Sequence record: OR786310.1
Origin: Escherichia phage ETEC-TG
Direction: 5' to 3' (one strand)
DNA: 64,000 bases
Part shown: in pieces, positions 16,198 through 62,241 of the stretch
How positions within the stretch are numbered: position 1 is the first letter of the stretch
How the letters are laid out: every line of letters begins with the position of its first letter
Position numbers and translations under genes: made by a program
The notes under the pieces: model-generated
What the model was told of the DNA's origin: nothing
The model's database searches: none
Seen by the model: the letters and a program-made list of their open reading frames with translations, nothing else

Positions 16198-17571
16198 ATG
16201 GCAACTTTTCGTGAAAAGGTAGCAACCGTAACTTTACTGTATGGTGCTACATCAATTCGTGAAACCCAGTTCGATATTCCCCTGATCCTTACAGGTCAGA
16301 ACGTAACTGGCGAAGCGATTCAATATTACTCTTCTTCCGATGCACTTTTGGAAGCAGGTTATGGATTAAATGATCCAGCGTATATTATGGCAGTCAAACT
16401 GTTTAACGGTTTGTTCCCACCAGATCAAGTCATGGTTGGTAAGCGTGAAGTTACAAACTTTACTCTAACTCCAATCGTAGAAGATAGTGCAACTTACACA
16501 ATTACCATCAAAAATGGTACCAAGAAAAAAGAATTTAAATTCATTGCTGATGACACTGCAACTGCACAAGAGATTGTAGTTGGTCTGACTGAAATGATCA
16601 ATGCAGATCTTGTTTATGGCCCACTGTTTACAGTAGCTAACAACGGCGCTGCAATGACTTTCACTCCAGTAGAAGGTAAGTTTGGTTCTATTGACAGCAC
16701 AGGTTTCACTCAAGAAACTGTCTATGCTAATGCTATTACGGAAGATATTGCTGCTCTGCATGATATTGATAGTAGCTGGTTCTGGACCCTTTCAGATTCC
16801 CATGAAACAGAAGATGTTCTAGCTTTGGCTGCATGGGTAGAAGAGAATGATAAAGTTTACTTCTTCTCTAGCTCTGAACCTGGAATTAAAACGAAAGCAG
16901 AAGATAACGTTCTGGAACGACTGAATGACCTCGGTTATAATAACACTTGCTTTGCTTTGTGGATGACCGATGCAGATTCTGTATTCCCAGAAGCAGCAGT
17001 TGTTGGTGCAATCTGTTCTCGTCAGCCTGGTTTAACTACTCTTCACGGTAAAACACTGGTAGGTGTAGAGATCGAGAAACTGGATCAGACTTCGGAAAAC
17101 AATATTGTTCAACAGAACGGTAACATCTATCGTAAAGAGCATGGAACTCTGTTCTATCGTGATGGATTGATGGTTAGCGGTTTCTTTGTTGACTATGTTG
17201 TTCATGCTTTGTGGTTTAAAGCTCGCACAGAAGAATCACTGTTTACACTGTTTAAACAACAGTCTATGCTGGGTGGTGGTGTTCGTGCTACTTCAAACGG
17301 TCTGGCTTTGATTCGACAAGCTGTTCTGGCTAACCCGATCCAAGTAGGTATCCTCAACGGTTCCATCGCTAATGAAGTTGTTACTTCTGAAGAGACTGGT
17401 TTGCGTGTCGATCTGAAACCTATTGTTTATATTCCTTCTCGTGCTGATATGACTGATGCGCAAATCAATGCTCGTCTGGTCGATGGAATGAAGATTGAAT
17501 ATGTTTACGCTGGCTTCTTCCATTACGTTAAAGTTCAGGTCAACGTCCTGACTAACCGTACTGCAAACTAA
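16198..17571 (+). CDS. tail sheath protein (putative)
   Basis: 457 aa, strong codon bias, followed by hairpin then the tube-sized gene and chaperone/tape-measure set. Confidence 0.5.
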   Translation: MATFREKVATVTLLYGATSIRETQFDIPLILTGQNVTGEAIQYYSSSDALLEAGYGLNDPAYIMAVKLFNGLFPPDQVMVGKREVTNFTLTPIVEDSATYTITIKNGTKKKEFKFIADDTATAQEIVVGLTEMINADLVYGPLFTVANNGAAMTFTPVEGKFGSIDSTGFTQETVYANAITEDIAALHDIDSSWFWTLSDSHETEDVLALAAWVEENDKVYFFSSSEPGIKTKAEDNVLERLNDLGYNNTCFALWMTDADSVFPEAAVVGAICSRQPGLTTLHGKTLVGVEIEKLDQTSENNIVQQNGNIYRKEHGTLFYRDGLMVSGFFVDYVVHALWFKARTEESLFTLFKQQSMLGGGVRATSNGLALIRQAVLANPIQVGILNGSIANEVVTSEETGLRVDLKPIVYIPSRADMTDAQINARLVDGMKIEYVYAGFFHYVKVQVNVLTNRTAN

Positions 17572-41872: not shown

Positions 41873-44545
41873 ATGTTTCCAATTCCAATATTTACTATTA
41901 TGACCAGCACTGGTGTCGTTCCTCTGCCAGCGGGTATTGTTAAAAAAGTAATCACTTTAGATTACCCAGATAATGCTGGTAATTCTAACAGCAGTTTAGC
42001 AATTTTGCTTAATGATGGTAGATTGTTTACTCAAGGCGCAAACCTTTTTGGTGAGATTGCAGATGGAACTCGTAGTGCACGATTCAATAATTTCCACTTA
42101 GCTTCTACTGTAGTAGCGGATGTGTTTACCGCAGATCGTTGTTTTGTTATTAAAACTAACAGCGGGGGATGGCAATATTCAGGATTGACAGCAGGGTTGG
42201 TAGGATCTATAGCAGCAGGTGGTACGGATGCATGTGTAACTACTTGGACCAGCTTTCCATCTGTAATAACAGGGACTATCTCTTTAGCCAATCTTAAAGA
42301 GGTTAAAGGAGGGTATAACAATACTCTTTGGTTAATGAATAGCGGTGTTCTTTATGGATCGGGTCAAAACACAGTAGGCAGTTTAGGTGCAAGCACTACT
42401 AACGAAGTTTCTACTCCCCGTCAGATAACAAGTTCAGCAGTTGCTTTTGATGCAGGTTATAACCAATGCTCTTATGTCAACAATGCGGGAACCTTGCGTG
42501 TTTGTGGAGCTAGTAAAGGTTTAGCAGGTAATAATAACACAACAACCGCTTTTGTCAATGCCACGATATCCACTACTGAAACAGTGTATGTCAAAGATTA
42601 CATCAATACAGTTTCCCAGACAATAGTTGTAGGAGATACCTCCGGTGGCGCGGGTACAGTAAACTACTTATATGTTAGATCTAATACAGAAACAACCTAC
42701 ACTAAACTGGACACCTTTGCAGCAGGTTTCTCAACATGGAAATTTCCACCAAGCCGCCACTCTTTTTTCGTTGGGATCAATAATTCCTTGTGGGCTATTG
42801 GTAAGAACTACACTGCAAACTTAGGTTTGGGATATGATTCTGCGAGCGGAGATCCACTCCAAGTGGGAAAACCAGTTAAACCTGAAGGAGTGGGTTCCTG
42901 GGATATAAACAAGCTCACAAGCGTTCATACGTTGAATATGGATATTACTAACCAATTAGGTTATCAAGGAACCTTTTTCGTTTATAACGGGGATATGTAT
43001 TATTCCGGTATTTGGAAAGATGGGAAAGCCTCGTATCTGTTCAATAGTGGTCTAAACTATAATAAATTCACACCAATAGCAAGCTCCGTGATTACGGGGG
43101 ATGTTCTGGCAACTGGCTTAACTACAGATTCTTTAGGAATTTGTATTGTAGGTGGAACTAAACAGTTGACACATTCTGTTAGCCCGGAAGGAGGTAAACT
43201 TTTCAATATTAAATACACTTCTTCTGTCCCTGCAAACATGACAATATCATCTACTGGTTTAATGACTTTCCATGCAGAAGGTGGTTTTGATGCAGGTATG
43301 ACAGCCTTAAACGCTGAAGGAACAACTTTATCAGATACCTCTGGAGGATATGCTTCAACATTGAGTGTTTACACCCCTAGCTTATCTGCGATGGATGTAG
43401 GAACAACACAAACAATGGTAGCAGAAATAACGCCAACAGGAGCAGCAAGCTTACCTGGTATGGTTGTTGAGTATACAACTACAGATCCTAATGTTGCTAC
43501 AGTAGATCCTACAACTGGTGTAATAACTGGTGTTGGTGATGGTGGTTGTAGAATTGGTTGCACAGCTACATATCAAGGTGTTGTTACCGCTTCTGATAGT
43601 TCTTATTTAACGGTGAACGCTGTTGCGGGAAAGGAGTTAGCTCCATCTCCGAGTAGTAGTTTAACGGTTCTAAACGGATATTTCAACCACTCGGCAGATG
43701 GGGCAATTACGTTCCCAATTTTATCGGGTACTGTCACACCAGCTAACTTTGTAGTTAAGGTGGATGACGTTGTAATACCTTCAAATAAAGTAATATTTAG
43801 AAATAAAGCTTTCTCTACAGTGGATAGTTATCCAGCAGGAGAATATAGACTGGCTATTGAATTTGCAAGTGCTTCAGTAGTGAATAGTGTTGATGTGTCT
43901 ATGGAAGCAAATCCAGATCTTTTAGAATTATGGGGCGGCAACAGAATTGGTTATTCTACAAGCCCAGCCTCACAATTCTTAAAAGGTTGTGCTAACTTAA
44001 GACGAATAACTTCTGATTGTTTTAGTAACACATCTTACACCGGAACATCTATAAGTGGTATCTTCTCTGGCTGTACAAGTTTGACAGCTATCCCTGAAGG
44101 ATTATTCAGTGATGCTTTATTTCCTTCAATGACAACAATGTCAAGCACGTTTGAAGGTTGTACATCTTTAACATCTATTCCTTCAGATTTATTTAAAAAT
44201 CTATCAAAAGTTACAAGATATTCTTACACCTTTAAAGATTGCACCTCTCTTGCAGAAGTTCCAGCAGGAATGTTTGATAATATTCCAACGAAAGTGACCT
44301 CTTTAACAGCTACATTCCAAGGTTGTTTAGCACTTACAGATTTTAATAAAATCTTTAATGACAACCCAGGGTTAACTGTTTGTGGTAAACGTGGAGCATT
44401 ATCTTCTTTCTTTAGTGGATGCACAAATCTTACAGGAACAGGAACAACATTAACAAATACATTAGGCGGAGTAGCTAATAGTTACCTATTCAGGTATTGC
44501 ACAAAACTTTCTGATTATAACAATATTCCTTCGGGTTATAAATAA
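41873..44545 (+). CDS. tail fibre/adhesin-like protein with C-terminal BspA-type leucine-rich repeats
   Basis: Seven approx 24-aa repeats F-x-G-C-T-S-L-T-x-I-P in the last approx 190 aa. Confidence 0.5.
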   Translation: MFPIPIFTIMTSTGVVPLPAGIVKKVITLDYPDNAGNSNSSLAILLNDGRLFTQGANLFGEIADGTRSARFNNFHLASTVVADVFTADRCFVIKTNSGGWQYSGLTAGLVGSIAAGGTDACVTTWTSFPSVITGTISLANLKEVKGGYNNTLWLMNSGVLYGSGQNTVGSLGASTTNEVSTPRQITSSAVAFDAGYNQCSYVNNAGTLRVCGASKGLAGNNNTTTAFVNATISTTETVYVKDYINTVSQTIVVGDTSGGAGTVNYLYVRSNTETTYTKLDTFAAGFSTWKFPPSRHSFFVGINNSLWAIGKNYTANLGLGYDSASGDPLQVGKPVKPEGVGSWDINKLTSVHTLNMDITNQLGYQGTFFVYNGDMYYSGIWKDGKASYLFNSGLNYNKFTPIASSVITGDVLATGLTTDSLGICIVGGTKQLTHSVSPEGGKLFNIKYTSSVPANMTISSTGLMTFHAEGGFDAGMTALNAEGTTLSDTSGGYASTLSVYTPSLSAMDVGTTQTMVAEITPTGAASLPGMVVEYTTTDPNVATVDPTTGVITGVGDGGCRIGCTATYQGVVTASDSSYLTVNAVAGKELAPSPSSSLTVLNGYFNHSADGAITFPILSGTVTPANFVVKVDDVVIPSNKVIFRNKAFSTVDSYPAGEYRLAIEFASASVVNSVDVSMEANPDLLELWGGNRIGYSTSPASQFLKGCANLRRITSDCFSNTSYTGTSISGIFSGCTSLTAIPEGLFSDALFPSMTTMSSTFEGCTSLTSIPSDLFKNLSKVTRYSYTFKDCTSLAEVPAGMFDNIPTKVTSLTATFQGCLALTDFNKIFNDNPGLTVCGKRGALSSFFSGCTNLTGTGTTLTNTLGGVANSYLFRYCTKLSDYNNIPSGYK

Positions 44546-47165: not shown

Positions 47166-49763
47166 CTAGTGACAGGACGCCCAGGAATTACCCACATCGT
47201 ATCCGGCAGTAAGCTGAACGTTAAGATTGTAAAATTCTCCAGCCTTAGTAACAGCTAAAGCAGCAAGTTCACCTGCCCGACTATAGGCTGTAAACCATCC
47301 ACCTTTGGGAGATTCATGAATGTTAGCCCAAATTTGCCCTGTCTCTTTTTCCTTATTATGCTTCCATTCTTCGACTTTAGCAAGGCATTCTTTATCAATT
47401 TTCTTTTGTTCTTCAGGATCGTCTACTTTCTTCCAACCTAATGATTCGGGTGAAAACCATTTGAATTCTACAAGGTTACGAGAAACTTCAAGCTGGGCTT
47501 CATCGTGGTATGCAATCATTTGTTGCACGAAGTCTTTATTCTTCCAGTCATCTTTAAAGAAGTCAACACTTAGCCCTTCTTCTTCGATCATGTCGTCATA
47601 AATAACCATTGCACGTTTAGCACAAATAACCCCACCACTTTGGAACAGAGAGTTAAGAATCGCGTGAGCAGAACGAGTAGGAACCTTACGACCGTCAATA
47701 CCCAAAACATATTGTTTACCAGTCTTAACCCAGAAATCGTTTAAACGTTCTTTAAGACGCGCCAATGGAAATGCAGCTTCCCAGAAAGCATCGAACACCA
47801 ATTGACCTGTAAACTTGTCGCTACCAATTGTTTTAGCAACCTTGTCGGCTTGTGCACCATAAGTAATACCATACTTAACAGATTTAGCAGGACTACGTTC
47901 AAATTTACGTCCAATAGTTTCAGTGATACGTTTTGCCATCATTGTGTGAACATCGTTAGGTTTCTCTAACAACAGAGCGTTACAATATTCGTGTGGCTCC
48001 GGCTCGTACCGCCAACAGTAGTGTGATTCAATTTTTGCTTCCAAAGAGTCGAAGTCGTAGCCAATCTGGAAGTACTTAGGAACCTCTACACCAAACAAGT
48101 TACGCATCTCCCATCCAAACAAAGATGTGACACGAGGAATATTAGCTACAGACCTATGCTTCATACGAGAGGTTGCAGCATCACATGTAGCTGCTGGGGT
48201 AGGAATACGACCATCCGCCCTTACTGCGGCTAAGAAACCTTTATCATATTCTTGATCTTCCTCATCTTCTTCCCAATCAGCACCACCGCCTAAAATAGAA
48301 TTCCTACGATGCTTATACGTTAAGTATTCTACAATCTGTGTAGCATAAGGGAATTTCTCACCTAAAGCTTGCAGGTTAGGACAGATTTCTTTTTCCTGAC
48401 CTTTGGTAAAACATGGGTTAGTCAATACTTTAAGACCGCGACCCTTACCTTTTGCTATACGCTCTTGAATCTTCCTCTCCAAGGTTTCCGGTGTGCACTC
48501 CAGATGATCACAACGATCCTGACAAAAATTAGAAGACAGAGTTTGCTCAACGTAAGCTCGAATACCTTTCTGAAGTTCTTCCTCGCTCTTTTTAATCTTG
48601 GTGCCAGATTTAAGAGTCAAGTCTTTATCTTTATATTCAGACGGTACCCAACCTAATCCTACAAGCCAGTTTTTAATATGGGTAGTATCGTTCAATGTTG
48701 CAGGGATATTAGGATCACACAAAGGCTCATCTGCTGCAACTGGTAGTTTCCACTCTTTCCCCAACATAACTAACCACCAATCGCCATTCCTCTCTTCCAA
48801 ATGACCATCATGTTTCTTAGCAAAATTGATCATATGGTTAGTTGGCTCTAAGTTCTTTTTAATTTGCAACTTAGGTGGAATAAAAGCCTTAAGATAACCT
48901 TTTGTTGCTGGTTTAGGTGGCAAAATAGGCTCAACGAGTAAACGAAGACGCTCCATTTCTGCATCCAAAAAAGCAAGGTTCTCTTCTGCTTGCTTCATGT
49001 TAAAAGCAAACCCACGGTGTTCCTGGCGTGTAATAATGTCTGCTACACGTTGTTCAAGTTCAAATGGACCTTCCCATTTATCATAATCACCCCATTCTTC
49101 CATAAGGTAATTATATACGCTCGTATTGGCTTTGTTGTCATAGATACAGTAATAAAGCATATCAGCAGCAAAAGTCTTAAATCGATCTTCTTCTGGAACC
49201 TCTTTACGAAAATCTATTTTTACATCACCCCCTGCCTTTCGAGAAAGTGCTGCCAAGCTATGTCCTGATTTGCCCTCAATCTTTCGATCTGGGTTTAACA
49301 CTTTACTCAAAATCAAGGAGTCAATAAGTTTTACCTTATTTTTACCCCACGTATTATATTTAACACTGTAATCTAAACCATAAAACAGTTTTGTAGCCAA
49401 CCAGTCATAGTTGATACCGTTGTGAGCCACAGCCATTTCAACCAGATATTCAGGCTTATCTTTAAAATAACCTTCATGATTAATAAAGTCTGGGAAATCT
49501 TTTAGTTGAAAATGTGTGTAATCTTGCGCCACATACTCTTTAAGAACATATGTGTATTTACCATCTGACTCTTCATAAGGACGCCCATCAAAGATGTATT
49601 TAGGGCCATCGTGGAAAGCTACTATTTCTCCTGTTTCATGGTTCTCTAAGACAATACAGTGCATTTGAAATGTGTCTTTGAGACGATAAGGACTAGCTAA
49701 ATAATCGATAGTGTCATTATTCAACAATCCGTTTGCTTCAATATCCCATGTAAACTTACTCAC
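47166..49763 (-). CDS. DNA polymerase, family A, with 3'-5' exonuclease domain
   Basis: Exo I motif FTWDIEANGL; motif A DFDSLEAKIE; motif B RSPAKSVKYGITYG; motif C IAYHDEAQ. Confidence 0.85.
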   Translation of the reverse strand: MSKFTWDIEANGLLNNDTIDYLASPYRLKDTFQMHCIVLENHETGEIVAFHDGPKYIFDGRPYEESDGKYTYVLKEYVAQDYTHFQLKDFPDFINHEGYFKDKPEYLVEMAVAHNGINYDWLATKLFYGLDYSVKYNTWGKNKVKLIDSLILSKVLNPDRKIEGKSGHSLAALSRKAGGDVKIDFRKEVPEEDRFKTFAADMLYYCIYDNKANTSVYNYLMEEWGDYDKWEGPFELEQRVADIITRQEHRGFAFNMKQAEENLAFLDAEMERLRLLVEPILPPKPATKGYLKAFIPPKLQIKKNLEPTNHMINFAKKHDGHLEERNGDWWLVMLGKEWKLPVAADEPLCDPNIPATLNDTTHIKNWLVGLGWVPSEYKDKDLTLKSGTKIKKSEEELQKGIRAYVEQTLSSNFCQDRCDHLECTPETLERKIQERIAKGKGRGLKVLTNPCFTKGQEKEICPNLQALGEKFPYATQIVEYLTYKHRRNSILGGGADWEEDEEDQEYDKGFLAAVRADGRIPTPAATCDAATSRMKHRSVANIPRVTSLFGWEMRNLFGVEVPKYFQIGYDFDSLEAKIESHYCWRYEPEPHEYCNALLLEKPNDVHTMMAKRITETIGRKFERSPAKSVKYGITYGAQADKVAKTIGSDKFTGQLVFDAFWEAAFPLARLKERLNDFWVKTGKQYVLGIDGRKVPTRSAHAILNSLFQSGGVICAKRAMVIYDDMIEEEGLSVDFFKDDWKNKDFVQQMIAYHDEAQLEVSRNLVEFKWFSPESLGWKKVDDPEEQKKIDKECLAKVEEWKHNKEKETGQIWANIHESPKGGWFTAYSRAGELAALAVTKAGEFYNLNVQLTAGYDVGNSWASCH

Positions 49764-50557
49764 TATTCCTCCTTTCTAATGTTCTCCAGAACCCACTGAA
49801 GTTCTTTTAAACTTAAACTTCTTACTCCCGCAGTTTTACTAGCTTCAGTTTTAAGTAACGGGTAAGCCTCAATGATACGCGTTTTAAGATCAGAAGTCAA
49901 GGCTTTTAAAAAATAGGTAGATGCTTCAGATAAAGAATCTTCTTCTGATAACACTTTACCTGCACTTGCTCCCGCTCTCCTAACGGCTATATCGTAGTCT
50001 TTACTGTTACCTAATACGAATAGTCGATTCTCTCCTAAAACAACGGGAGAACGCTTCTTGTTGCGTTTAATCCATATCTGGAATACACAAGGAACATCCC
50101 AAGGTTCTCCATGAAGAATAAAAGATCCTTTTGGACATTCTTCTTCGTAAAGAAGATGCATGTGGGGATTTAGTTTGTGTGCAAAAAAGATTTTTTGAAA
50201 TGTGCGAGGCAAGATAAAACAAATACCACCTTCGTTATCCAACATTTCAGCACAATGGTTAAAGAACTTAATGGCAAGACTGGCATTTTTTCCAAACGGA
50301 GGATTACCGACAAAAGCAGTTACACTACCAACAGACTCAACAGATTGAGCTAAAAAATCTGCCTCAATACAATCTTCAAACTTAGGGTCAATATCAAAAG
50401 AAGTTATGTTTTTAAAACAAGAAGAGAAAGCTCCTTCTCCCGCAGATGGTTCTACGTAGTTAGCTTCCTCTCCAAAAATTTCTTTGATCTTATCACATAA
50501 GAACCCCGCATAAGCGGGGTTAGTGTAATATTGATCAAGTATGTTCAACTTGCTCAA
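49763..50557 (-). CDS. N6-adenine (amino-type) DNA methyltransferase, orphan
   Basis: SAM-binding motif VEPSAGEGAF and catalytic motif VGNPPFGK; no adjacent restriction endonuclease. Confidence 0.75.
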   Translation of the reverse strand: MSKLNILDQYYTNPAYAGFLCDKIKEIFGEEANYVEPSAGEGAFSSCFKNITSFDIDPKFEDCIEADFLAQSVESVGSVTAFVGNPPFGKNASLAIKFFNHCAEMLDNEGGICFILPRTFQKIFFAHKLNPHMHLLYEEECPKGSFILHGEPWDVPCVFQIWIKRNKKRSPVVLGENRLFVLGNSKDYDIAVRRAGASAGKVLSEEDSLSEASTYFLKALTSDLKTRIIEAYPLLKTEASKTAGVRSLSLKELQWVLENIRKEE

Positions 50558-51076: not shown

Positions 51077-51092
51077 AAGGGCCGAAGCCCTT
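51077..51092 (-). other. intergenic stem-loop (GGGC-UUCG-GCCC on the transcript)
   Basis: Near copy of the 47131 hairpin, directly after the primase-helicase stop. Confidence 0.45.
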
Positions 51093-52869
51093 AATAGTTG
51101 CTATCCGTAGGCAAATTAGCAGGATTGTTGAAATACTGCTCTTTGTCATGCAGAGTTGCAGTTCTAATGTCATAGTAAAACTGCCCTGCCGGACCAGTTT
51201 CCGAGAACTCACGGTTTTTTAGGATAAAGCAATGAGTCGTATTGCGTTCTACAGGGTCTTCAGCGGCTTTATCTCGTTCCAAAGCCAAGGTAATACCAGC
51301 GCCTTTAGCCAAGAAACTACTACCCATTGCATCGTCCTCTGTTAAGTGTTCATTGCCACCATTAGCCGATTTCTTAACGTGTGAGATGACGATAATAGTT
51401 ATAGCGTACTCTTTCATGATGCGCTTCAACCATGTTGCTAACTCTTCCTGGGCTTGAACATCCATACCAGAAAGCAAATCAGAATAAGGGTCGATAACAA
51501 GAATTGTTACTCCAAAATAGATGATCATCTCCAAAACTTTTTCTTTGATAGACTCCACATCTGCTCCACGATCATCACACACATAAAAACGTGGTGATCC
51601 ATCTTCTCTTTCGTAAAAATCTAGGATTTTTTCTTTATTCTCTTCCAAGATTTGAAATTTCTCTTCCGGTGTTTTCCTGTGTAGAGGAATATGCAGGAAC
51701 GAGGACAACAGGTTACGAGAATATTTCTTATAAGTTGCTTCCAAGGACAGAATACCCAAGGTATGTTCTGGGTGAGCAACAATAATATGTTTGGTGATCT
51801 CGTTCACCATCAAAGTTTTACCGATACTGGTCTTTGCCAGGATCACTGTAATCTCTTCCTCTACTAAACCACCACCCAGCATATTTGCAGCAACACGCAT
51901 AAAAGGAGGCAAGGTAATCATCTTGGATTCCAAGCATTCTAATGCAGCTTCATACAAGACATTAGAAGCATAAACACCTGCTGGGGTGTATAGACGAGCA
52001 CTCCAAAAAGCTTTTACGAAATCTTTTGCACGACCTTCTTCCAGATACTGATTGGCATCCTTAAGATCCATCTGCATACGGTAGACTTTGTTACGGGGCA
52101 GCACCTTAACAATATTTTCAAATGCCTCATTACCTGCTTTGTCATTATCCATGCAAACAATAATCTTCTTAAATTTTTCAAAGAAAGGATATTGTGCCTG
52201 AACTTGTTTATACATACTGGTTTCACCAGTTGTGCCACTAACTACTGCTGGAAGTTCATATTTGTTGTCCAAGTTTTCAGACAACATTTGATAAGCTGCC
52301 AGAGCATCGTGTTCACCACCTGTAATTACCACAGTATGAGAACGGTCTGCAAAACGAATTTGTCCAAAAAGATCTACATCTTTACCTACTTGACCAATAG
52401 GTTTACTGAAATCTTTAGGATGAATACGACGCTTAAAACCAACCAATTCTTTACCGATGGTAGTCGGATATAAACAACTTTCTACTACCATCTGATCCCC
52501 TTCCTGACGGTATTCATAACGAACACCATAGAAAGATGAAACTTTTTCTTTAATGCCTCGATAACCACGTGGGTTGGTTGATGTTTCTTGAACAATTTTA
52601 CGATGAATCTGTTTATTAAATTCCGAACCCACAATCTCCTCCTCTTCTTCTAAAACTTCACCATTTTCTCGTAACCATTCTACGCTAGGAATAGTGTATT
52701 CACACGCAAAGCACTTAGCACCTTTATGCTCTCCATTAGAATCTAATCCATAAACCATCAGGTTATTACGAGAGCGATCCTTGCCATTTTTCATGCAGCG
52801 CGGACAACCTGTATGCCCTTCCTTGCTAAGATCAACATCAAATCCATATTTAGTTATAATGTGCGACAC
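51091..52869 (-). CDS. primase-helicase (zinc-binding primase fused to DnaB-like helicase)
   Basis: N-terminal CPRCMKNG ... CFACEY zinc motif; Walker A ILAKTSIGKT; Walker B-like VIDPYSD. Confidence 0.75.
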   Translation of the reverse strand: MSHIITKYGFDVDLSKEGHTGCPRCMKNGKDRSRNNLMVYGLDSNGEHKGAKCFACEYTIPSVEWLRENGEVLEEEEEIVGSEFNKQIHRKIVQETSTNPRGYRGIKEKVSSFYGVRYEYRQEGDQMVVESCLYPTTIGKELVGFKRRIHPKDFSKPIGQVGKDVDLFGQIRFADRSHTVVITGGEHDALAAYQMLSENLDNKYELPAVVSGTTGETSMYKQVQAQYPFFEKFKKIIVCMDNDKAGNEAFENIVKVLPRNKVYRMQMDLKDANQYLEEGRAKDFVKAFWSARLYTPAGVYASNVLYEAALECLESKMITLPPFMRVAANMLGGGLVEEEITVILAKTSIGKTLMVNEITKHIIVAHPEHTLGILSLEATYKKYSRNLLSSFLHIPLHRKTPEEKFQILEENKEKILDFYEREDGSPRFYVCDDRGADVESIKEKVLEMIIYFGVTILVIDPYSDLLSGMDVQAQEELATWLKRIMKEYAITIIVISHVKKSANGGNEHLTEDDAMGSSFLAKGAGITLALERDKAAEDPVERNTTHCFILKNREFSETGPAGQFYYDIRTATLHDKEQYFNNPANLPTDSNY

Positions 52870-52881
52870 TTTGTTCTCCTG

Positions 52882-53160
52882 TTAAAATGGTTCGTTAGTC
52901 TCCATCATATATTCTGCTTCTAGTTCTTCCATATGCTTTCTAAATTGGAAAGCAATTTCTGCTACAGTTACATTTAAATCTTTTTCAAAAACTTCTGTAG
53001 AGCCTTCATAAAAACGAATACCGTCAATTAAAAGCCCTCCGTGGTAATCCCAATCACTTTCACGAGAAAGCGGGTTAGGCTCTTCATAATAGTAATCCAC
53101 CTCCACAACTAAGGCTTTCCCGTTACAAGTGGTGTATTCAAAATCAAAAGTGTTAATCAT
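52882..53160 (-). CDS. hypothetical protein
   Basis: ORF track. Confidence 0.35.
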   Translation of the reverse strand: MINTFDFEYTTCNGKALVVEVDYYYEEPNPLSRESDWDYHGGLLIDGIRFYEGSTEVFEKDLNVTVAEIAFQFRKHMEELEAEYMMETNEPF

Positions 53161-54104
53161 TATAGCTCCTCAAATAAAAGTCTACGACGCTCATTCAACA
53201 CATCAATGTGATAATGAGTCCTGACATACTTAGCTAATGCTAATCCTTTCTCCATGCAAACATCGGGAGCACTTAATAAGTATTCCGTAATATCTTTCCA
53301 CTCGGAAGGTGTTTCAGCAAAGAATAACAAATCTTTAAACTCTTGCGTATGATAATTCTCACGAGGAGAACAGATCAAAGGTAAACCCTTAGCACCTGCC
53401 TCAAGAATTTTAAGATTGCTTTTTGCATTATTAAACACGTTATCAATCAATGGCGCAAGACTGATTTGATGACCATCGTAAGATTCCATGTAGTTGGCAT
53501 ATGGTCTTACACCTTCATAAACACAAGTTGGTGCTACATTTTCTCTGATTACAGACCATTCACGACTACTTAAAACTTCAGAATCCCTACGAAAACCACA
53601 TATTGTAAGATCTTTACCAAAATCGGGCAAGATAGCCAAGTCTTGTTTATGTGTTTCACTTCCAGCCCAGACTAATGGAGTTTTGGAGTAGCGATCACGG
53701 GTCAACACAAATTGACCTTCATCGTAAGGAAGTCCATTAGGGATTATGTGCACATTATCATTGTATTGTGAAAGTTCAACTTGCAAAGCAGGTGTCGTAG
53801 TTGTAACAAGATCGCTGTGCTCTAAAAACCATTTTAAATGTTCACGAATACCTGATTCAAAAATACCTTCTAACATGTGTCCTTTTGGAATAACTAAAGA
53901 GTCATCCAAATCCATAACCATTTTAAAGCCTAGGTTTTTAAGGGCTAAAAAGCCCTGTTTACCTTTTGTTGGCACCCCGTTAAAAACGAAAACGTTGTGT
54001 TTAGGTTGTGAAGAGAACTGCCTTGAGTAAGGCAGCACTACCCTATGGAAATCGCAAACACTATAATTGATTCCGTTACGATTGTCAAGAATTATTTGTC
54101 CCAT
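53160..54104 (-). CDS. glycosyltransferase, GT-B type (paralog 1)
   Basis: C-terminal KSNLKILEAGAKGLPLICS resembles the GT1/GT4 nucleotide-sugar motif; paralogous to 54112-55059. Confidence 0.45.
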   Translation of the reverse strand: MGQIILDNRNGINYSVCDFHRVVLPYSRQFSSQPKHNVFVFNGVPTKGKQGFLALKNLGFKMVMDLDDSLVIPKGHMLEGIFESGIREHLKWFLEHSDLVTTTTPALQVELSQYNDNVHIIPNGLPYDEGQFVLTRDRYSKTPLVWAGSETHKQDLAILPDFGKDLTICGFRRDSEVLSSREWSVIRENVAPTCVYEGVRPYANYMESYDGHQISLAPLIDNVFNNAKSNLKILEAGAKGLPLICSPRENYHTQEFKDLLFFAETPSEWKDITEYLLSAPDVCMEKGLALAKYVRTHYHIDVLNERRRLLFEEL

Positions 54105-54111
54105 ACTTCAC

Positions 54112-55059
54112 CTACAAACTTTCAATAACCTGGCGTCGCAACTCATTTGCATCTGCCAGATTATAATGTGTTCGAACATGTTCAGCCAAGAACAAGCCAC
54201 GATCTTCCCGATAGTTTGGATTGCGAAGAAGCTTAACAATTTCGTAATGCCATTCTGCTTTGTTCTCTGCGTAAGCAACAGCACGAGCATCTACAGGGTT
54301 AAAATAAGGTAATACTTTAGAACAAACAATCGGAATACCTTTTGCTCCAGCTTCCAGGATTTTGAGATTACTTTTACAATTATTAAAATCATTATCTACC
54401 AAAGGAGCTATAGCAATAGCATGACTTTCGTAAACACTCATGTAATTATCTAAATCTTTTACAGCGGCTTTATATTTGGCATTTGGTAAATTTCTGCGAA
54501 TCTTAATCCATTCTTGTCCCGTGATGCTCTGTGATGCTTCATATCCCGCAATAGTAAGAAGTTCATCATCGAAAGTATTAGAGACTAGTCGTAAATCTGG
54601 TTCGTGACTAGCACCGCCAGCCCATACAACAGGGGTACCGGATGAACGATCATTTGACAAAGTGAATTGTCCACTATCAAAAGGAAGTGCATTTCGGATC
54701 ACAACAACATTCCTATTTAAGTGACGGATCTTATATGCCAAATATTCTGTAGTCACAATAACCACATCAGCAAGCTTAACCATAGCTACAATAGCATGAG
54801 TGTTTGACTCGTATAGATTTGCTAAATAATGTTCTGGATTAAGTTGGTAGAAATCATCTAAATCTACAACAATCTTAACACCTTGACGTTTCAAAGATAA
54901 AACGTATTCTGCACCTTTAGAGTGGATACGGTTAAACACAACAACATCTTTCTTAGGTTGAAGATTATGGTTGTTAAATGGCATAACAATACGATGATAG
55001 TCACAACCGCTGTGAGGTTTTGCATCAATTTTTAGTTTAGACCATTTTTTATTTGACAT
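54112..55059 (-). CDS. glycosyltransferase, GT-B type (paralog 2)
   Basis: KSNLKILEAGAKGIPIVCS; shares CDYHR, DLDD and WAG motifs with paralog 1. Confidence 0.45.
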   Translation of the reverse strand: MSNKKWSKLKIDAKPHSGCDYHRIVMPFNNHNLQPKKDVVVFNRIHSKGAEYVLSLKRQGVKIVVDLDDFYQLNPEHYLANLYESNTHAIVAMVKLADVVIVTTEYLAYKIRHLNRNVVVIRNALPFDSGQFTLSNDRSSGTPVVWAGGASHEPDLRLVSNTFDDELLTIAGYEASQSITGQEWIKIRRNLPNAKYKAAVKDLDNYMSVYESHAIAIAPLVDNDFNNCKSNLKILEAGAKGIPIVCSKVLPYFNPVDARAVAYAENKAEWHYEIVKLLRNPNYREDRGLFLAEHVRTHYNLADANELRRQVIESL

Positions 55060-55732
55060 GTGCTAGTGCCTCCTCATAGGAAATTCGGATTTTCCCATTT
55101 TTAATATCCTCTAAAGATGCTTTATATTCTTCCCAGTTAATCCCGATAGCAGCTTCTTTCTCTTCTTTTGTCAGATTAGCAAAAGGCATAGGATTGTTTC
55201 CAAAAACATCGTCTGGGTGGATATAAGCCATGATACGAAGTGGACAAGGTGTTGCCTGAATACCATGATTCAAACCAGCAGCTTGTAAACGGTGTCCCCA
55301 TTCAGCATCTTCAAAACCATAACCATGAGTGTAAGGACGGAAATAACCCATCTTCTCAACAACGGCACGAGAATACATTGCAAATTGACACATTGCAAGT
55401 TCCCAGAGAATAACTTCTCCTTTGCTTCCAACAACTTTATCTTTGAAGTACTCCGGCATACCAAAGAAATCCCATCCTCCAGAAACAGCTTGATCTACAA
55501 AGTATGTTTCCCATCCTTCCATGACTGGGTAGCAATCGTCGTCAAAAATAAACCAATAATCATAACCTTCTTCATAAAACTGGTGCATAAGTTCATTCCT
55601 GGCATAAGCTACACCTTTACGATCTGGATCGTTGAATACTCGAAAATCTGCACGTGGATCTGTTACAAGGTAGTCTTTAAGTGGACGGACACCTACAGTG
55701 ATAACACCCACTCCGATTTTAATATTTTCCAT
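55049..55732 (-). CDS. glycosyltransferase, GT-A fold (family 2-like)
   Basis: YARNELMHQFYEEGYDYWFIFDDDCYP (DxD motif) and GFEDAEWGHRL second motif. Confidence 0.5.
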   Translation of the reverse strand: MENIKIGVGVITVGVRPLKDYLVTDPRADFRVFNDPDRKGVAYARNELMHQFYEEGYDYWFIFDDDCYPVMEGWETYFVDQAVSGGWDFFGMPEYFKDKVVGSKGEVILWELAMCQFAMYSRAVVEKMGYFRPYTHGYGFEDAEWGHRLQAAGLNHGIQATPCPLRIMAYIHPDDVFGNNPMPFANLTKEEKEAAIGINWEEYKASLEDIKNGKIRISYEEALAHVK

Positions 55733-55740
55733 TTTCTCTC

Positions 55741-56304
55741 CTAAATAGTTTTACTGTGATCGTGACAGTGTAATAAATGATGTATAGACCGTTGAGGATT
55801 TGTTTGACCTAATCTGTAAATGTGAAACAGATACATTCCCCGCATCAATCCTAACCTCTTTCCTTTTTCATGTAAAGTGTGAGAGAAAATTAAGTCGAAT
55901 TGGATAGATTTTTCTTCGAAAGGAATTTCATTCCACAATGATTTTCTAAAAAGCAAAAAGAAACCTGCCAGAGGTGTTCCGAAAGGAACTTCTTCAACAC
56001 TCACTTTATGATATTCTCTTGCAATCTTAGCATATTCTATATGGTTTAGAATATCTGGATCATCGTTAATTTGGTTAGAGAAAAGCTGATAACCACTGCC
56101 TAACCTGTTACAAGTTGCACCTATTACATCAAAAGGCGGGTTTGACATAACAAGCTCTTCAAGCATAGATGGTTGATCAGGTAGGAGGAACATTGTATCG
56201 GTATCTCTTAAACACACCCAACTATCATCTGGAAGAACGGCAATGGCTTCATTGATAGCCTTGCCGATATTTCCTGTCAGATAGGGAGTAATATAATAAA
56301 TCAT
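55741..56304 (-). CDS. nucleotide-sugar transferase-like protein (GT-A-like, DxD)
   Basis: N-terminal ITPY...GNIGKAINEAIAVLPDDSWVCLRDTDT pattern. Confidence 0.35.
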   Translation of the reverse strand: MIYYITPYLTGNIGKAINEAIAVLPDDSWVCLRDTDTMFLLPDQPSMLEELVMSNPPFDVIGATCNRLGSGYQLFSNQINDDPDILNHIEYAKIAREYHKVSVEEVPFGTPLAGFFLLFRKSLWNEIPFEEKSIQFDLIFSHTLHEKGKRLGLMRGMYLFHIYRLGQTNPQRSIHHLLHCHDHSKTI

Positions 56305-56321
56305 TCTCCCCCTCCGTTATA

Positions 56322-56513
56322 TTAACTGTCGGCTACAATCCCGCGTTTAATCATTTCCTGTTGGATTTGGATGACACGATCTCGTGCTTCCATGTATTCT
56401 TTAAAAGATTCTTGAAGATGGTCACGAGCTACGTCTCGTAGCTTAATCAGTTTGTCGTTTGTCACTTCTTGAAGAGAGATTTCGCCAGTTTCATTGGTCC
56501 CAAGCGTTTTCAT
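56322..56513 (-). CDS. hypothetical small protein
   Basis: ORF track. Confidence 0.3.
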   Translation of the reverse strand: MKTLGTNETGEISLQEVTNDKLIKLRDVARDHLQESFKEYMEARDRVIQIQQEMIKRGIVADS

Positions 56514-56721
56514 TTACAACCTCCTTAATAGCTACTGCACAGTTCTTACAAATACATTGACCTTTGTTCTTAGAAATTTCAATGTAAGGTTCATTTTCGT
56601 TTTCTCCGCGTCGTGAGTCGTATATTACTGTATTGAAGCAGACAACGCAAATGTTTTTAATAACGACATATTTTTGCACTTTCTGTTTAGTGCGAAAATT
56701 GACTTCAATGACTTCTCCCAT
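56491..56721 (-). CDS. small Cys-rich protein (start trimmed to ATG at 56721)
   Basis: GGGGAGA RBS; ATGA start/stop overlap with upstream gene; CVVC and CICKNC motifs. Confidence 0.35.
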   Translation of the reverse strand: MGEVIEVNFRTKQKVQKYVVIKNICVVCFNTVIYDSRRGENENEPYIEISKNKGQCICKNCAVAIKEVVNENAWDQ

Positions 56722-57006: not shown

Positions 57007-57528
57007 TTAACTCCCCTTTGGTAGATAGAAACCATGCACTTTATCTCGATAAACAAGACGCATATCACGTTCCCAGTGTGTCCTTATATTCCGTTTCTTG
57101 AAGTATAGAGCACCTTTAGTAACATCTAAAACAGACCGCAATTCAGGAAAATGTTTCTCTAAATAAAGTAAACGCTCCGCTATTGCTTTTGCTTCTTGCC
57201 ACTTATCTTTCTCTGTTACGTTAAAAGTTTTCGCATATGAGAATTGCCCTTTCTGGAACAAGACTCCTCTGACTGTGTTAGGGAAGTAGGTATCATTTCT
57301 TCTGTTGATTACCACATTCCCAACGGCATTCATTCCTTTTTTACCCAGACCTCGACCTTCTGCGTAAATTGCACAAGCTAATAGAATTTTATCATTATAT
57401 TGCTTTGTACATTTGTGAACTACTTTAGCGGTTTTTACGTTTGCAGCTTCGGCTTTCGCCACAACAGGTGTAAATGTAAAAGCAGTTAAGGATAGTAACG
57501 CAACTGTTACAAAGTTTTTTATCAGCAA
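57007..57528 (-). CDS. SleB/CwlJ-type cell wall hydrolase with N-terminal signal/anchor (candidate endolysin)
   Basis: Hydrophobic N-terminus; LLACAIYAEGRG motif of SleB-type hydrolases; TTG start after AGGAGG RBS. Confidence 0.6.
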   Translation of the reverse strand: MLIKNFVTVALLSLTAFTFTPVVAKAEAANVKTAKVVHKCTKQYNDKILLACAIYAEGRGLGKKGMNAVGNVVINRRNDTYFPNTVRGVLFQKGQFSYAKTFNVTEKDKWQEAKAIAERLLYLEKHFPELRSVLDVTKGALYFKKRNIRTHWERDMRLVYRDKVHGFYLPKGS

Positions 57529-57627: not shown

Positions 57628-58230
57628 TTATGGACATTCATACCATTCTTTTTTACCACCGAAGGCCATCACCACATCGCAAATATCCAGACCAGCTTTA
57701 CCTACACCATATGCTTTCAGCTTCCATTCCCCATCTTCACGAACCAAGGAAGCCACGTGGCAGATTGTGTTACCAGCTACTTCAGGAGCCAGGAAGTCAA
57801 AATCCAGAATTTCCACATTGCGTTCGGAGTCAAAGATTTTAAGCATACCTTCAGAAGCATGACCAAAACGTTTCAGACCTGTATCATCATCAATGGTCAG
57901 AACAAAGGCAATCTCTTGTGCATCAGGAGAGATTTTAGCCAGAGTAATATCAATCTGCTCCATGCTGCCAGTCCCATCACGAACATCGTCACCAGCGAAG
58001 GTAGAACGTTCAGGATCAAACTTGTTAGCGTAGCAAACCAGATGACGTGCAGACAGCATTTCAGGATTGCCAGCGGCATTATGACGACAAACCAGTGCAC
58101 TTACATCCAGATCCAGTTTAGAATCAGATTTCCAAGAGAATTCCAGGCGCAGTTCTTTCAGAGCCGGAGCAACTTTCTTCAGGGAAATTTTTTCGCTAGA
58201 GCCTTTTTTCAGGGAAATTTTATCAGTCAT
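57628..58230 (-). CDS. terD: TerD-family protein (tellurium resistance / stress protein domain)
   Basis: Aligns by eye to E. coli TerD: N-terminal ISLKK repeats, DLDVSALVC, FVLTIDD, GEWKLKAYGVG; host-like codon usage. Confidence 0.75.
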   Translation of the reverse strand: MTDKISLKKGSSEKISLKKVAPALKELRLEFSWKSDSKLDLDVSALVCRHNAAGNPEMLSARHLVCYANKFDPERSTFAGDDVRDGTGSMEQIDITLAKISPDAQEIAFVLTIDDDTGLKRFGHASEGMLKIFDSERNVEILDFDFLAPEVAGNTICHVASLVREDGEWKLKAYGVGKAGLDICDVVMAFGGKKEWYECP

Positions 58231-58515: not shown

Positions 58516-58744
58516 TTCTTCCTCCTAATGTTATCTCCGGTTTGTATATACGAAGAATTATAGCATTTTCATTTTCTTTGTCAACCCATTCTTCATAATC
58601 GGGCCATACATGAATCTCTACTCTACTTACAATATCTTCCATTCGCACAGTCCCAATGAAATACTCTTTGAGACTGCGCATAATGAAAGCTTCTCTCTCG
58701 CGCCAATAATTTTCTACGACTTGAGAGGCAAGCTCGTCGATCAT
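58496..58744 (-). CDS. hypothetical small protein
   Basis: ORF track; coupled to neighbours. Confidence 0.3.
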   Translation of the reverse strand: MIDELASQVVENYWREREAFIMRSLKEYFIGTVRMEDIVSRVEIHVWPDYEEWVDKENENAIILRIYKPEITLGGRSVKLRN

Positions 58745-59535
58745 TTTTTAGCACCTACTTTAACAACCCACTCTCCGAACTCTTCAGATAAAAGTTTGTC
58801 ATAAAGCTCTGAATCTGTCAAGTCTAAATCTTTAATGCCAATAAAACCAACATTATCATAAGCATTTGCCAGTTCTTTCAGGAAGCCAAACTTCTCATTA
58901 CCAACGCCAACCATGAACCAATAAATAGGTTTATTCTTATTCTCTTCAATAAGACGACGAACAGCACTAGGATCACCATTCTCACCATCCGTCTGGAAGA
59001 ATACAACACCAGGGGTAACGTCAGCACCTGGTTCAGATACAGCTACAACTTTTTCACGCTCTACAGACACTGTTTCAGTTTTACCAAGCAGACGATTAAA
59101 GAAGCCTTTCTTTGGAGCCTCCTCTTGTACCACTTGTTTAGTGGTAATATATTTGGTAACAGTGCCAAAATACTCATCGTAGATATCTGCCATTACAGGG
59201 GCGTAATTTGTTCCACCTCCGATACGAACATTGCGCATACATTTACCAACATAGTCATCGTAAACGTCTGCTGTTGCTGGAGTAAGCTCTTGGGAACTCG
59301 TATTAAAGGCCCACATATCAATTTGTTGATTATCGTCGAACAGCATACCAAAAGGAAGCAGTTTACCTACAAAATCACTCACTACCCCACTAGAATATAG
59401 ACCATGCATACTACCAGAAATATCTAGAGCACATGCTACACGAAGAACAATCTTACCTTCATTCAGGTTCTTATTCTTTTTCAGAGAGAAAGCAAGGTTT
59501 TCTTGACGTTTTTTCAGGCTGATTTTCTCGGACAT
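58741..59535 (-). CDS. vWA-domain protein with TerD-like N-terminal ISLKK segment (TerY-like)
   Basis: MIDAS motif DISGSM, downstream GGGTNY and TDGENGD; N-terminus MSEKISLKK parallels TerD N-terminus. Confidence 0.6.
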   Translation of the reverse strand: MSEKISLKKRQENLAFSLKKNKNLNEGKIVLRVACALDISGSMHGLYSSGVVSDFVGKLLPFGMLFDDNQQIDMWAFNTSSQELTPATADVYDDYVGKCMRNVRIGGGTNYAPVMADIYDEYFGTVTKYITTKQVVQEEAPKKGFFNRLLGKTETVSVEREKVVAVSEPGADVTPGVVFFQTDGENGDPSAVRRLIEENKNKPIYWFMVGVGNEKFGFLKELANAYDNVGFIGIKDLDLTDSELYDKLLSEEFGEWVVKVGAKK

Positions 59536-60934: not shown

Positions 60935-61132
60935 TTACTCCTCCTCCTCATTGAAGTCAATATCTGCAAGGAGTTCGAATTTACGGAAGTTACGACAACC
61001 TTCATAAATATAACAATCACGACAAACTGCTAGAACACTTGGGGGATATATGCCTCCCATCGGTGCGAATCGTTTTTCGTCATCATAACGGACACCAATG
61101 TCTTCATCAATTATATAGATACGGATTCTCAT
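60935..61132 (-). CDS. small Cys-rich protein
   Basis: CRDCYIYEGC motif; acidic C-terminus. Confidence 0.3.
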   Translation of the reverse strand: MRIRIYIIDEDIGVRYDDEKRFAPMGGIYPPSVLAVCRDCYIYEGCRNFRKFELLADIDFNEEEE

Positions 61133-62241
61133 TTACCAAGCCCTCGTTTCACAGCAGCTACCATCCCGTCTTCCAGAGATTGAACTTCATTAATATAATC
61201 AACACGAGCAGCACGGGCTTCCGTATTGATGCGGTTAGTTTCTTCCAGCATCTTAACCAAGTTTTCCTGATCGTGACGCAGAGTTTCAATATCCAACACT
61301 TGACGGTTAGCCAGTGCTGCTGCTTCGATCTGATTCTGTGTGGCAAGATCGCTACCCAGTTTAATTGCCAGGTTAAATTCATCAAGAACGTTATTCTGCG
61401 TCTCTGCTGCTTTCATTTGACGTAAGCTCTCGATATACATTGAGAAGTTAGCAGAGTAAGCAGGAATAACATTATTTACTATGTTACGCGCAGATCGCAT
61501 TAAGCTTGCAGAAACTTTTTGCATACCTTGTACACGCGGTCCCATTTGGACACACAGTAGGCGCAATGCTTTTAAATCTGCAATACGAATCTCCAGAAGA
61601 TCCAAAGTATCTCGGATCACTTGTCGCTGTTCTACTGCATCTTCTGGAAGAGCAGCCAAAGCTTGTTCTTCTTTTTCATAGGTTGCTGTTAGAAGCTGCA
61701 TATCTCGGTTCAAACTTGCAGCATATTGTCCAATAGCTTGATGTAGCTTTTCAAGATATACCAAGGAATCTTCTTCTTTGCGAATATCCATTTGAAGGTT
61801 CTTTACCAACTCTTCAATACGGTTATTAACATTATCAAACTCCCCGAACAGGTCTTCTTTCATACCCATAACTTTTTTAATGAGTTTAGTAATACCCTTG
61901 CTTTGTTTAATAGAGTTTGGATCAAGTTGTTTTGCCTGTTTAATCAAAGCTGTAAGTCGTTCACTCATCTGATCGCCTTGATTACTACGTTGATGTTTTA
62001 ACACCTCGGCATTCAAGGAACGCAAGGTTGTTCCTGCCTCTGCCCCAATCTCTTCAATCTCTTGTCGGGTCATAGAAGGCAAAACTGGAACTTCTTGCGG
62101 TGCCGCTGGTGCATAAACAGGACTGGCATCTAACACGCTTGGAGCGAATACAGATTTACTTGCATCTGTTGTTGCAGCGAATACACTCATTTCAGACTTC
62201 TTCTGACCACCAGTAGCTGCTTTTAAAAATGGACTTGTCAT
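61129..62241 (-). CDS. TelA/KlaB-like helical protein (tentative)
   Basis: 370 aa, predominantly helical, same operon as TerD and vWA proteins; family assignment from size, composition and context only. Confidence 0.35.
   Translation of the reverse strand: MTSPFLKAATGGQKKSEMSVFAATTDASKSVFAPSVLDASPVYAPAAPQEVPVLPSMTRQEIEEIGAEAGTTLRSLNAEVLKHQRSNQGDQMSERLTALIKQAKQLDPNSIKQSKGITKLIKKVMGMKEDLFGEFDNVNNRIEELVKNLQMDIRKEEDSLVYLEKLHQAIGQYAASLNRDMQLLTATYEKEEQALAALPEDAVEQRQVIRDTLDLLEIRIADLKALRLLCVQMGPRVQGMQKVSASLMRSARNIVNNVIPAYSANFSMYIESLRQMKAAETQNNVLDEFNLAIKLGSDLATQNQIEAAALANRQVLDIETLRHDQENLVKMLEETNRINTEARAARVDYINEVQSLEDGMVAAVKRGLGK

Follow-up and report, generated by a model that had tools for sequence, protein, structure and literature searches.

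A run of four consecutive glycosyltransferase (GT) genes, here called GT4, GT3, GT2 and GT1 in order of transcription, lies on the minus strand of a 64,000-nucleotide stretch (the window) of the genome of Escherichia phage ETEC-TG (OR786310.1), a phAPEC8-like Phapecoctavirus of the subfamily Stephanstirmvirinae. We tentatively propose, with slightly less than even confidence, that this cassette assembles a rhamnose-containing glycan on virion proteins. The four glycosyltransferases and a sugar-nucleotide pathway point to the assembly of a short glycan, and a structural protein is favoured as the acceptor because related cassettes are embedded in head and packaging modules, because bacterial homologs are linked to adhesins, and because of the evidence against DNA modification. 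The new finding is how broadly phages carry the cassette and that it is linked to the structural module, and this moves its likely function from DNA to virion proteins. The initial annotation of the window had offered sugar modification of DNA and glycosylation of virion proteins as alternatives; gene neighbourhoods, HincII digestion, sensitivity to restriction-modification (RM) systems and the lack of a hydroxymethylase in a relative favour the second of these and disfavour the first.

In the proposed scheme GT3, an enzyme of the GT-A type, would add the first sugar to an acceptor made during infection, and the paralogs GT1 and GT2 together with GT4 would extend it into a short oligosaccharide. 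The donors would be host nucleotide sugars and deoxythymidine diphosphate (dTDP)-L-rhamnose topped up by phage-encoded RmlABCD, and the acceptors would be proteins of the capsid, tail, Ig-like decorations or fibres. Their modification in the cytoplasm, ahead of assembly or in its course, would give a sugar-coated particle. Candidates encoded in the window are the major head protein (12594-13595), the sheath (16198-17571), the Big_2/RCC1 protein (41873-44545) and the fibres. The presence of the genes, their folds, paralogy and purifying selection, the Rml pathway of relatives and the distribution and surroundings of the cassette are observed; which sugars are donated, in what order the enzymes act and that the acceptor is a protein is what we infer. 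In RefSeq the block is already annotated as 'glycosyltransferase (x4)', and no experimental study of these four genes turned up in the literature searched.

Neighbourhoods of the cassette in other phages and in bacteria

A scan of IMG/VR returned at least 565 viral contigs with a relative of GT3 followed by a GT-B gene, and the neighbourhood survey kept 79 loci, which form 25 clusters at 60% identity. As far as gene order tells, the conserved core of the cassette is a GT3-like GT-A gene followed by a GT-B gene. GT3 stands immediately upstream of GT-B in most phages, and homologs of GT3 with 38-45% identity occupy this position in Pseudomonas and Enterobacter prophages and in Klebsiella phage 05F01; the final homolog search for GT3 added only 17 further proteins. 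GT4 is an addition of the Stephanstirmvirinae and the second GT-B an addition of the E. coli lineages, a duplication that is shared by Justusliebigvirus and missing from 05F01 and most other phages (two GT-B match places per record in E. coli phages, one in Klebsiella phages). The GT-B family spans phages of Streptomyces, Arthrobacter, Pseudomonas and enterobacteria, and the GC content of the cassette genes equals that of their own genome across a range from 37% to 66%. The GT3/GT-B pair is a mobile, long-resident phage module. A recent origin as a moron was considered for the pairs inside structural modules and rejected, since their GC content matches that of the phage carrying them.

The 'bacterial' GT-B homologs of Pseudomonas and Enterobacter are prophage genes. 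In these prophages and in about 34 environmental contigs, the order runs from holin or endolysin through the glycosyltransferases to the terminase subunits (TerS/TerL), portal and capsid. The Enterobacter prophage carries in succession an endolysin, a GT4 homolog, a nucleoside diphosphate (NDP)-sugar epimerase/dehydratase, a GT3 homolog, GT-B, HNH, TerS, TerL and capsid, and in the Pseudomonas prophage the GT3 homolog and GT-B are followed by TerS/TerL, portal and capsid, with a Big_2 Ig-like protein encoded just 5' of the pair. In Streptomyces phage Zuko, genes for a sugar epimerase and a GT-B precede TerL, portal and capsid. In siphophages of the L039 type, the GT3 and GT-B genes come straight after the major head protein gene and are followed by that of the head-tail adaptor, and a further locus (L043) holds, between portal and head genes, a GT-B, a GT4-like protein, a GT2, a PLOD-type protein-lysine glycosyltransferase and a methyltransferase resembling rhamnosyl-O-methyltransferases. 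Among 104 downstream neighbours no family is more frequent than TerL; the per-locus counts of TerL and portal were taken from PHROG scans, as jackhmmer searches seeded with four TerL and three portal sequences were too insensitive.

About 47 environmental contigs of roughly 30-35 kb (L050-L096) share a conserved open reading frame (ORF) of 170 amino acids (aa) and a fixed GT-B gene, followed by a variable set of GT-A and methyltransferase genes and then TerL, at a distance of a few genes downstream in about 34 contigs. The alternatives found in the variable cassette are two ORFs without assigned function, a GT2-like gene, a GT2 with a PLOD-type glycosyltransferase and a methyltransferase, or a Methyltransf_23 gene. 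This variable cassette looks like a glycan-diversity locus, and its position beside a fixed GT-B gene suggests diversifying selection on the glycan.

Chromosomal homologs of the GT-B genes, 41-45% identical to GT2, occur in Burkholderia dolosa (L006 3025-8440) and Trinickia symbiotica (L098 2742-9026). On both chromosomes they belong to a triad with an invasin/intimin inverse-autotransporter adhesin and a protein of 555-571 aa (34% identity between the two genera), and this triad may be an adhesin-glycosylation system. Cytoplasmic glycosyltransferases that act on adhesins are known from Gram-negative bacteria, where AAH and TibC are paired with AIDA-I and TibA, and HMW1C with HMW1. In these systems the glycosyltransferase gene stands beside a large adhesin gene, the same signature as in the Burkholderia and Trinickia loci. 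In very large distant homologs (P0264, P0285, P0296 and P0303; 1405-2225 aa) the GT-B is joined either to TPR repeats or to domains of the GT2 and methyltransferase types.

The four proteins and their likely sugar donor

The initial annotation had recognised four consecutive glycosyltransferase-like genes, and ORFs with exactly the boundaries it gave are present on the minus strand (Table 1). Its division into two GT-B and two GT-A enzymes also holds, since the profiles agree with it and two predicted folds add to them. In PHROGs all four proteins fall in 'glycosyltransferase' families, with E values from 1e-78 to 1e-148 (GT3 at E=1.2e-78). GT1 and GT2 are paralogs, as had been noticed, with 41% identity (E=3e-77) and the common motif KSNLKILEAGAKG at residues 228/229. 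The sequence features described for the other two proteins were likewise located: GT3 has FDDD, with the DDD at 64, and ED at 141, and the DxD of GT4 is invariant across 23 homologs. Transferase folds of both types were recovered in predicted models. Two Rossmann-like domains, the C-terminal one binding the nucleotide sugar, are predicted for the GT-B type, the model of GT2 having a Rossmann-type N-terminal domain. A single Rossmann-like domain with a DxD metal/nucleotide-sugar motif, the mark of the GT-A type, is also found, and the model of GT4 (predicted local distance difference test score 92.7) is a minimal GT-A. GT3 is probably a GT-A enzyme resembling family GT2, and jackhmmer links it to a Pfam-verified GT2.

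Other resources say less. Pfam is weak or silent on the four proteins: GT1 reaches 25.2 bits against PF13524 (cut-off 25), and GT3 reaches 19.5 bits against TAGT (cut-off 27.5), with weak matches to GT2 and Glyco_transf_7C. NCBIfam gave zero matches for any of the four, and searches of PDB sequences with single sequences and profiles of the three GT families found no significant relative, the best being b4GalT7 with GT3 (E=0.025). The lack of a significant relative among solved structures means that these GT lineages are uncharacterised. All four genes are under strong purifying selection, with a ratio of non-synonymous to synonymous substitution (dN/dS) of 0.05-0.10 against a relative that is about 80% identical. 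Kyte-Doolittle hydropathy shows no membrane segment in any of the four proteins, in agreement with the initial annotation; the maxima over 19 residues range from 0.76 to 1.65, and the peak of 1.65 falls on a helix and strand in the N-terminal domain of GT2.

The likely source of the donor is the phage's own Rml pathway, whose genes lie outside the window, elsewhere in the genome of relatives. Profile matches indicate a complete dTDP-L-rhamnose pathway in the relative EF1-1, where RmlA, RmlB, RmlC and RmlD score 458.7, 429.5, 224.1 and 238.5 bits against NCBIfam equivalog cut-offs of 360.65, 365.1, 155.75 and 224.05. In phage records RmlC is distributed over the subfamily in parallel with the cassette, and this extends to the distant Klebsiella 05F01, Citrobacter Tr1 and Pseudomonas PsgM04F. 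An NDP-sugar epimerase/dehydratase is encoded inside or beside the cassette in two surveyed loci (L004 and L097) and in Streptomyces phage Zuko. That dTDP-rhamnose would serve as donor for any of the four enzymes is what we infer from these observations. Olsen et al. (2020) reported a complete dTDP-rhamnose pathway in phapecoctaviruses and phi92-like phages and speculated that the rhamnose might glycosylate hydroxymethylated nucleotides, an idea cited in the BASEL paper as 'putative dTDP glycosylation machinery'. Phapecoctavirus ESCO37 (OM386659), a viable phage, naturally has neither rmlA nor rmlB but retains the block of four glycosyltransferases; these phages can thus do without their own Rml pathway, at least where the host makes dTDP-rhamnose.

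Candidate acceptors

Transfer of rhamnose or other sugars to modified bases of replicating phage DNA, in the style of T-even phages with 5-hydroxymethylcytosine, would evade restriction and other DNA-targeting defences. With the T-even DNA glucosyltransferases (alpha-GT, beta-GT and beta-glucosyl-HMC-alpha-GT) and with TAGT the four enzymes share soluble GT-B and GT-A folds, the use of nucleotide sugars, a setting among DNA-metabolism genes and a large virulent myovirus as carrier. However, there is no 5-hydroxymethylpyrimidine or TET pathway here, the DNA is cut by HincII and a sister genus is RM-sensitive, and we consider this reading quite unlikely. The proposed comparison with the T4 enzymes by profile and by structure gave no Pfam family match and did not place them among the closest folds: the alpha- and beta-glucosyltransferases of T4 rank 20th and 36th among the fold matches, below about 20 generic enzymes of family GT4, and no T-even DNA glucosyltransferase is named among the top 50 viral fold matches, several of which are nameless. 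The match of GT3 to TAGT (PF20691) is below the gathering threshold and covers 37 residues round the DxD, at profile positions 53-90 of 205; no TET/JBP partner is annotated in the relatives, and GT3 is acidic (pI 4.9). As the initial annotation had stated, the window contains no hydroxymethylase. The search it suggested in the rest of the genome was equally negative in the annotated genome of EF1-1, which has no ThyA-family hydroxymethylase, TET/JBP or DpdA according to this one relative's annotation and a profile check of two ORFs. A 333-aa 'thymidylate synthase' of the genus was considered as a hydroxymethylase and rejected, as it matches ThyX weakly and is not of the ThyA family. In small temperate phages the 10 kb flanking the pair on each side contain no base-modifying partner, and adjacency to replication genes is specific to the subfamily rather than a conserved feature of the cassette. 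In the literature on a collection of phages of avian pathogenic E. coli, HincII failed on three Tevenvirinae only; it cut the DNA of all five Phapecoctavirus and both Justusliebigvirus phages, whose typing relied on HincII restriction fragment length polymorphism. The phi92-like phages of the BASEL collection (Bas60-62), which carry an orthologous cassette (70-76% identity) and Rml, are described in the BASEL paper as 'exceptionally susceptible' to RM systems, and two of them, Bas61 and Bas62, are affected by Druantia III and ARMADA II, defences that the authors who reported this sensitivity think recognise unmodified DNA. The T4 type is therefore matched neither in family or closest fold, nor in a hydroxymethylated-base pathway, nor, going by the literature, in DNA refractory to restriction, and T4-style hypermodification is unlikely in these phages. 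A sparse or conditional modification, or one with rhamnose that bypasses 5-hydroxymethylpyrimidines, leaving HincII and the tested RM systems unblocked and countering some other DNA-sensing defence, strikes us as highly improbable.

Remodelling of the host envelope is easier to defend, although still rather unlikely. Soluble or peripheral glycosyltransferases at the cytoplasmic face of the inner membrane would here act with dTDP-rhamnose on undecaprenyl pyrophosphate-linked intermediates or the core of lipopolysaccharide (LPS), altering or starving enterobacterial common antigen, O-antigen, LPS core or colanic acid, and so stop superinfection or keep progeny from sticking to receptor-bearing debris. 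The initial annotation had argued from the missing membrane segments against O-antigen conversion of the Gtr type. That part stands: GtrABC likewise alters an adsorption-relevant glycan by phage-encoded sugar transfer, but it is an integral-membrane, periplasmic system that uses undecaprenyl phosphate-glucose in temperate phages, whereas four soluble proteins of a virulent phage are seen here, and no integral-membrane genes of the GtrA, GtrB or GtrC type occur in the neighbourhood of the block. The argument does not extend to soluble or peripheral enzymes acting on lipid-linked glycans, with which the lack of transmembrane segments is compatible. The top structural matches of the GT-B proteins include enzymes with lipid-linked or LPS acceptors (PglA, WlaC, PimA/PimB, WaaG, WbnH and WaaB), dTDP-rhamnose is a classic O-antigen precursor and RmlABCD is phage-borne, enterobacterial common antigen and LPS core are needed for entry according to the BASEL paper, a fibre that degrades colanic acid is carried, and modification of surface polysaccharide was proposed by the authors of ZCKP1. 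However, this is a virulent phage, and as the second BASEL paper argues, it is likely futile to modify abundant surface glycans completely within a lytic cycle. Moreover, there is no flippase, polymerase or initiating transferase, the GT-B family is found in phages of hosts with very different envelopes, and, unlike a moron, the pair has a matching GC content and stands between capsid genes and connector genes in several phages. Another soluble target (a host protein such as a defence or translation factor, RNA, or a small molecule such as a nucleoside-like metabolite) seems very unlikely to us. Such a metabolite could be linked to the Ter-type cluster of TerD, vWA-TerF, TelA, TerC, phosphoribosyltransferase, HAD and Macro genes that adjoins the block throughout the subfamily, and the acceptor-side residues of the GT-B proteins (C19, H22, R23, D66, D68, D69 and H77), strongly conserved across very different phages, fit a chemically constant acceptor. 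That acceptor could, however, simply be the sugar added by GT3. Outside the subfamily the cassette is not accompanied by the Ter cluster, and four glycosyltransferases, with variable glycosyltransferase and methyltransferase sets elsewhere, resemble the assembly of an oligosaccharide rather than a single-step modification of a metabolite.

For the glycosylation of virion proteins, the nearest model is provided by mycobacteriophages. Virion glycosylation has been shown experimentally in Che8, Corndog and Myrna (Freeman et al. 2023, as described in PMC11256854 and PMC12363180). In Che8, whose capsid is reported to be glycosylated, the glycan shield changes recognition by antibodies. The likeness to the Che8 type lies in several adjacent phage glycosyltransferase genes, in methyltransferases joined to them (in relatives of the present cassette and in Che8 gp108), in a position at the edge of or inside the packaging and head module (here in the homologous cassettes of other phages), in the lack of membrane machinery and in the occurrence in both temperate and virulent phages. 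The layout in Che8 (three glycosyltransferases, an HNH gene and the genome end) is the same as in the terminase-side cassettes of other phages. The families differ, however: phrog_7162, 2456 and 14179 here against phrog_8858, 1721 and 854 in Che8, so that orthology to the glycosyltransferases gp108-110 was rejected. Che8 has no GT-B, whereas the source phage has a Gram-negative host, a cassette in the replication block and its own dTDP-rhamnose pathway. Capsids are also glycosylated in giant viruses such as chloroviruses and mimivirus, with virus-encoded glycosyltransferases and sugar-nucleotide pathways. Virus-encoded rhamnose synthesis, soluble glycosyltransferases and methyltransferases, and a glycan built without host membrane machinery are common to both cases. 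The giant viruses differ in being eukaryotic viruses with unrelated capsids; generic GT folds are all that is shared, and their glycosyltransferases appear among the weaker viral fold matches.

Several observations weigh against glycosylation of virion proteins. The replication block, and not the vicinity of structural genes, is where the cassette is found in the source phage and in its subfamily, and the searchable literature holds no report of a glycosylated virion protein in any Stephanstirmvirinae phage. With the families of Che8 there is remote similarity in GT-A only, the sole match being that of GT3 to the N-terminal GT-A of gp108 (E=2e-3, 23% identity). In small phages, the site just upstream of the terminase also hosts DNA methyltransferases and similar genes, and families of DNA methyltransferases, ParB-like proteins and 2-oxoglutarate oxygenases are among the neighbours of the cassette. 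A DpdA-like tRNA-guanine transglycosylase gene lies near it in 3 of the 79 loci, a frequency on which a conserved 7-deazaguanine partnership with DpdA was rejected. In addition, ORF calling on the metagenomic loci was crude, and fold comparison cannot separate protein, lipid-linked and DNA acceptors.

Of the broad-host-range E. coli phages in collections for therapy and biocontrol, those of Phapecoctavirus and Justusliebigvirus are some of the most common. A self-made rhamnose-containing glycan on their particles, if it exists, would affect immunogenicity, clearance, stability and interaction with the host, and virion glycosylation would be extended from actinophages to phages of Gram-negative bacteria and to a cassette found in hundreds of uncultured phage genomes.

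The locus and its surroundings

Table 1. Coordinates of the cassette genes and of other features discussed in the window
Feature	Positions	Strand	Description
GT4	55741-56304	-	187 aa; minimal GT-A; phrog_14179; D34-T-D36; first gene of the block
GT3	55049-55732	-	227 aa; GT2-like GT-A; phrog_2456; DDD 64-66; putative priming enzyme
GT2	54112-55059	-	315 aa; GT-B; phrog_7162 (GT4-like / Glyco_trans_1_2-like); paralog of GT1
GT1	53160-54104	-	314 aa; GT-B; paralog of GT2
orf92	52882-53160	-	92 aa; acidic, conserved, no assigned function; phrog_4240 (E=2.9e-32)
primase-helicase	51091-52869	-	next gene downstream, same direction; context, outside the cassette; annotated in relatives
putative N6-adenine methyltransferase	49763-50557	-	
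SleB-type cell-wall hydrolase	57007-57528	-	Pfam Hydrolase_2 (E=2e-17); hydrophobic N-terminal segment
TerD	57628-58230	-	Ter-type cluster
vWA-TerF-like	58741-59535	-	Ter-type cluster
TelA	61129-62241	-	Ter-type cluster
159-aa ORF	10557-11036	+	between portal and head genes
tail spike/fibre ORF	30046-32298	+	750 aa

The block is flanked by the cell-wall hydrolase and the primase-helicase, and transcription runs from GT4 through GT3, GT2, GT1 and orf92 to the primase-helicase; the glycosyltransferase genes are transcriptionally upstream of the primase-helicase on the minus strand, and not downstream of it as first described. The gaps do not exceed 8 nt or are replaced by overlaps (orf92/GT1, 1-nt overlap, the ATG of orf92 overlapping the stop of GT1 in TAATG; GT1/GT2, 7-nt gap; GT2/GT3, 11-nt overlap; GT3/GT4, 8-nt gap), and the block therefore looks like one translationally coupled operon. 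Apparently it is co-transcribed with the primase-helicase: no minus-strand terminator-like site was found between them in the scan, in which promoter-like sites (34 against 25.1 +/- 4.6 expected) and terminator-like sites (3 against 5.4) were at background. The place of orf92 between the last GT-B and the primase-helicase is constant within the subfamily, including loci L017-L025 and L097, and its homolog in Klebsiella 05F01 is gene_136 (E=8e-9); whether it belongs to the cassette is uncertain.

About 64 E. coli phage records match the DNA of 52800-56600 at 98-99% identity, and the entire block is present in 70 records. Several records with other host labels also match: the 'Campylobacter phage' records MG065650 (B15; GT2, 98.4%), MG065689 (A110a; GT2, 71.8%) and MG065656 (C3; RmlC, 61.9%), and the 'Acinetobacter phage' ABPW7 (OP562383; 98.9% DNA identity across the block). 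The identities of these four records are at the level of E. coli Phapecoctavirus and Justusliebigvirus, so their host labels look doubtful.

The putative N6-adenine methyltransferase gene is three genes away from the cassette (orf92, the primase-helicase and a 143-aa ORF intervene), not two as first counted. At its start it overlaps the stop region of the 143-aa ORF block upstream, and its stop codon lies directly against the start of the DNA polymerase gene. It matches Pfam Eco57I below threshold (E=0.017) and a PHROG DNA methyltransferase over residues 7-119 (E=3e-10), its top PHROG being of unknown function; on these profile matches the label 'orphan N6-adenine methyltransferase' is weakly supported. 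On the other side of the block, the SleB-type hydrolase is placed in the replication/Ter block, away from structural or lysis genes. The Ter-type cluster follows and in relatives continues past the end of the window with SprT, TerC, Macro, phosphoribosyltransferase and HAD hydrolase genes.

Two further ORFs lie in the structural part of the window. The 159-aa ORF matches the C-terminal part of phrog_1530, a 'DNA methyltransferase' profile (E=5e-49), and also families of head maturation proteases, and the methyltransferase name of this PHROG may be a misannotation that arose through a fusion family. Between 30200 and 32300 the GC content is 0.50-0.56, compared with about 0.39 in the rest of the window. 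This segment is the body of the tail spike/fibre ORF, the first 50 or so codons of which have a phage-like GC content, and the E. coli-like GC content of the body suggests a horizontally acquired receptor-binding module.

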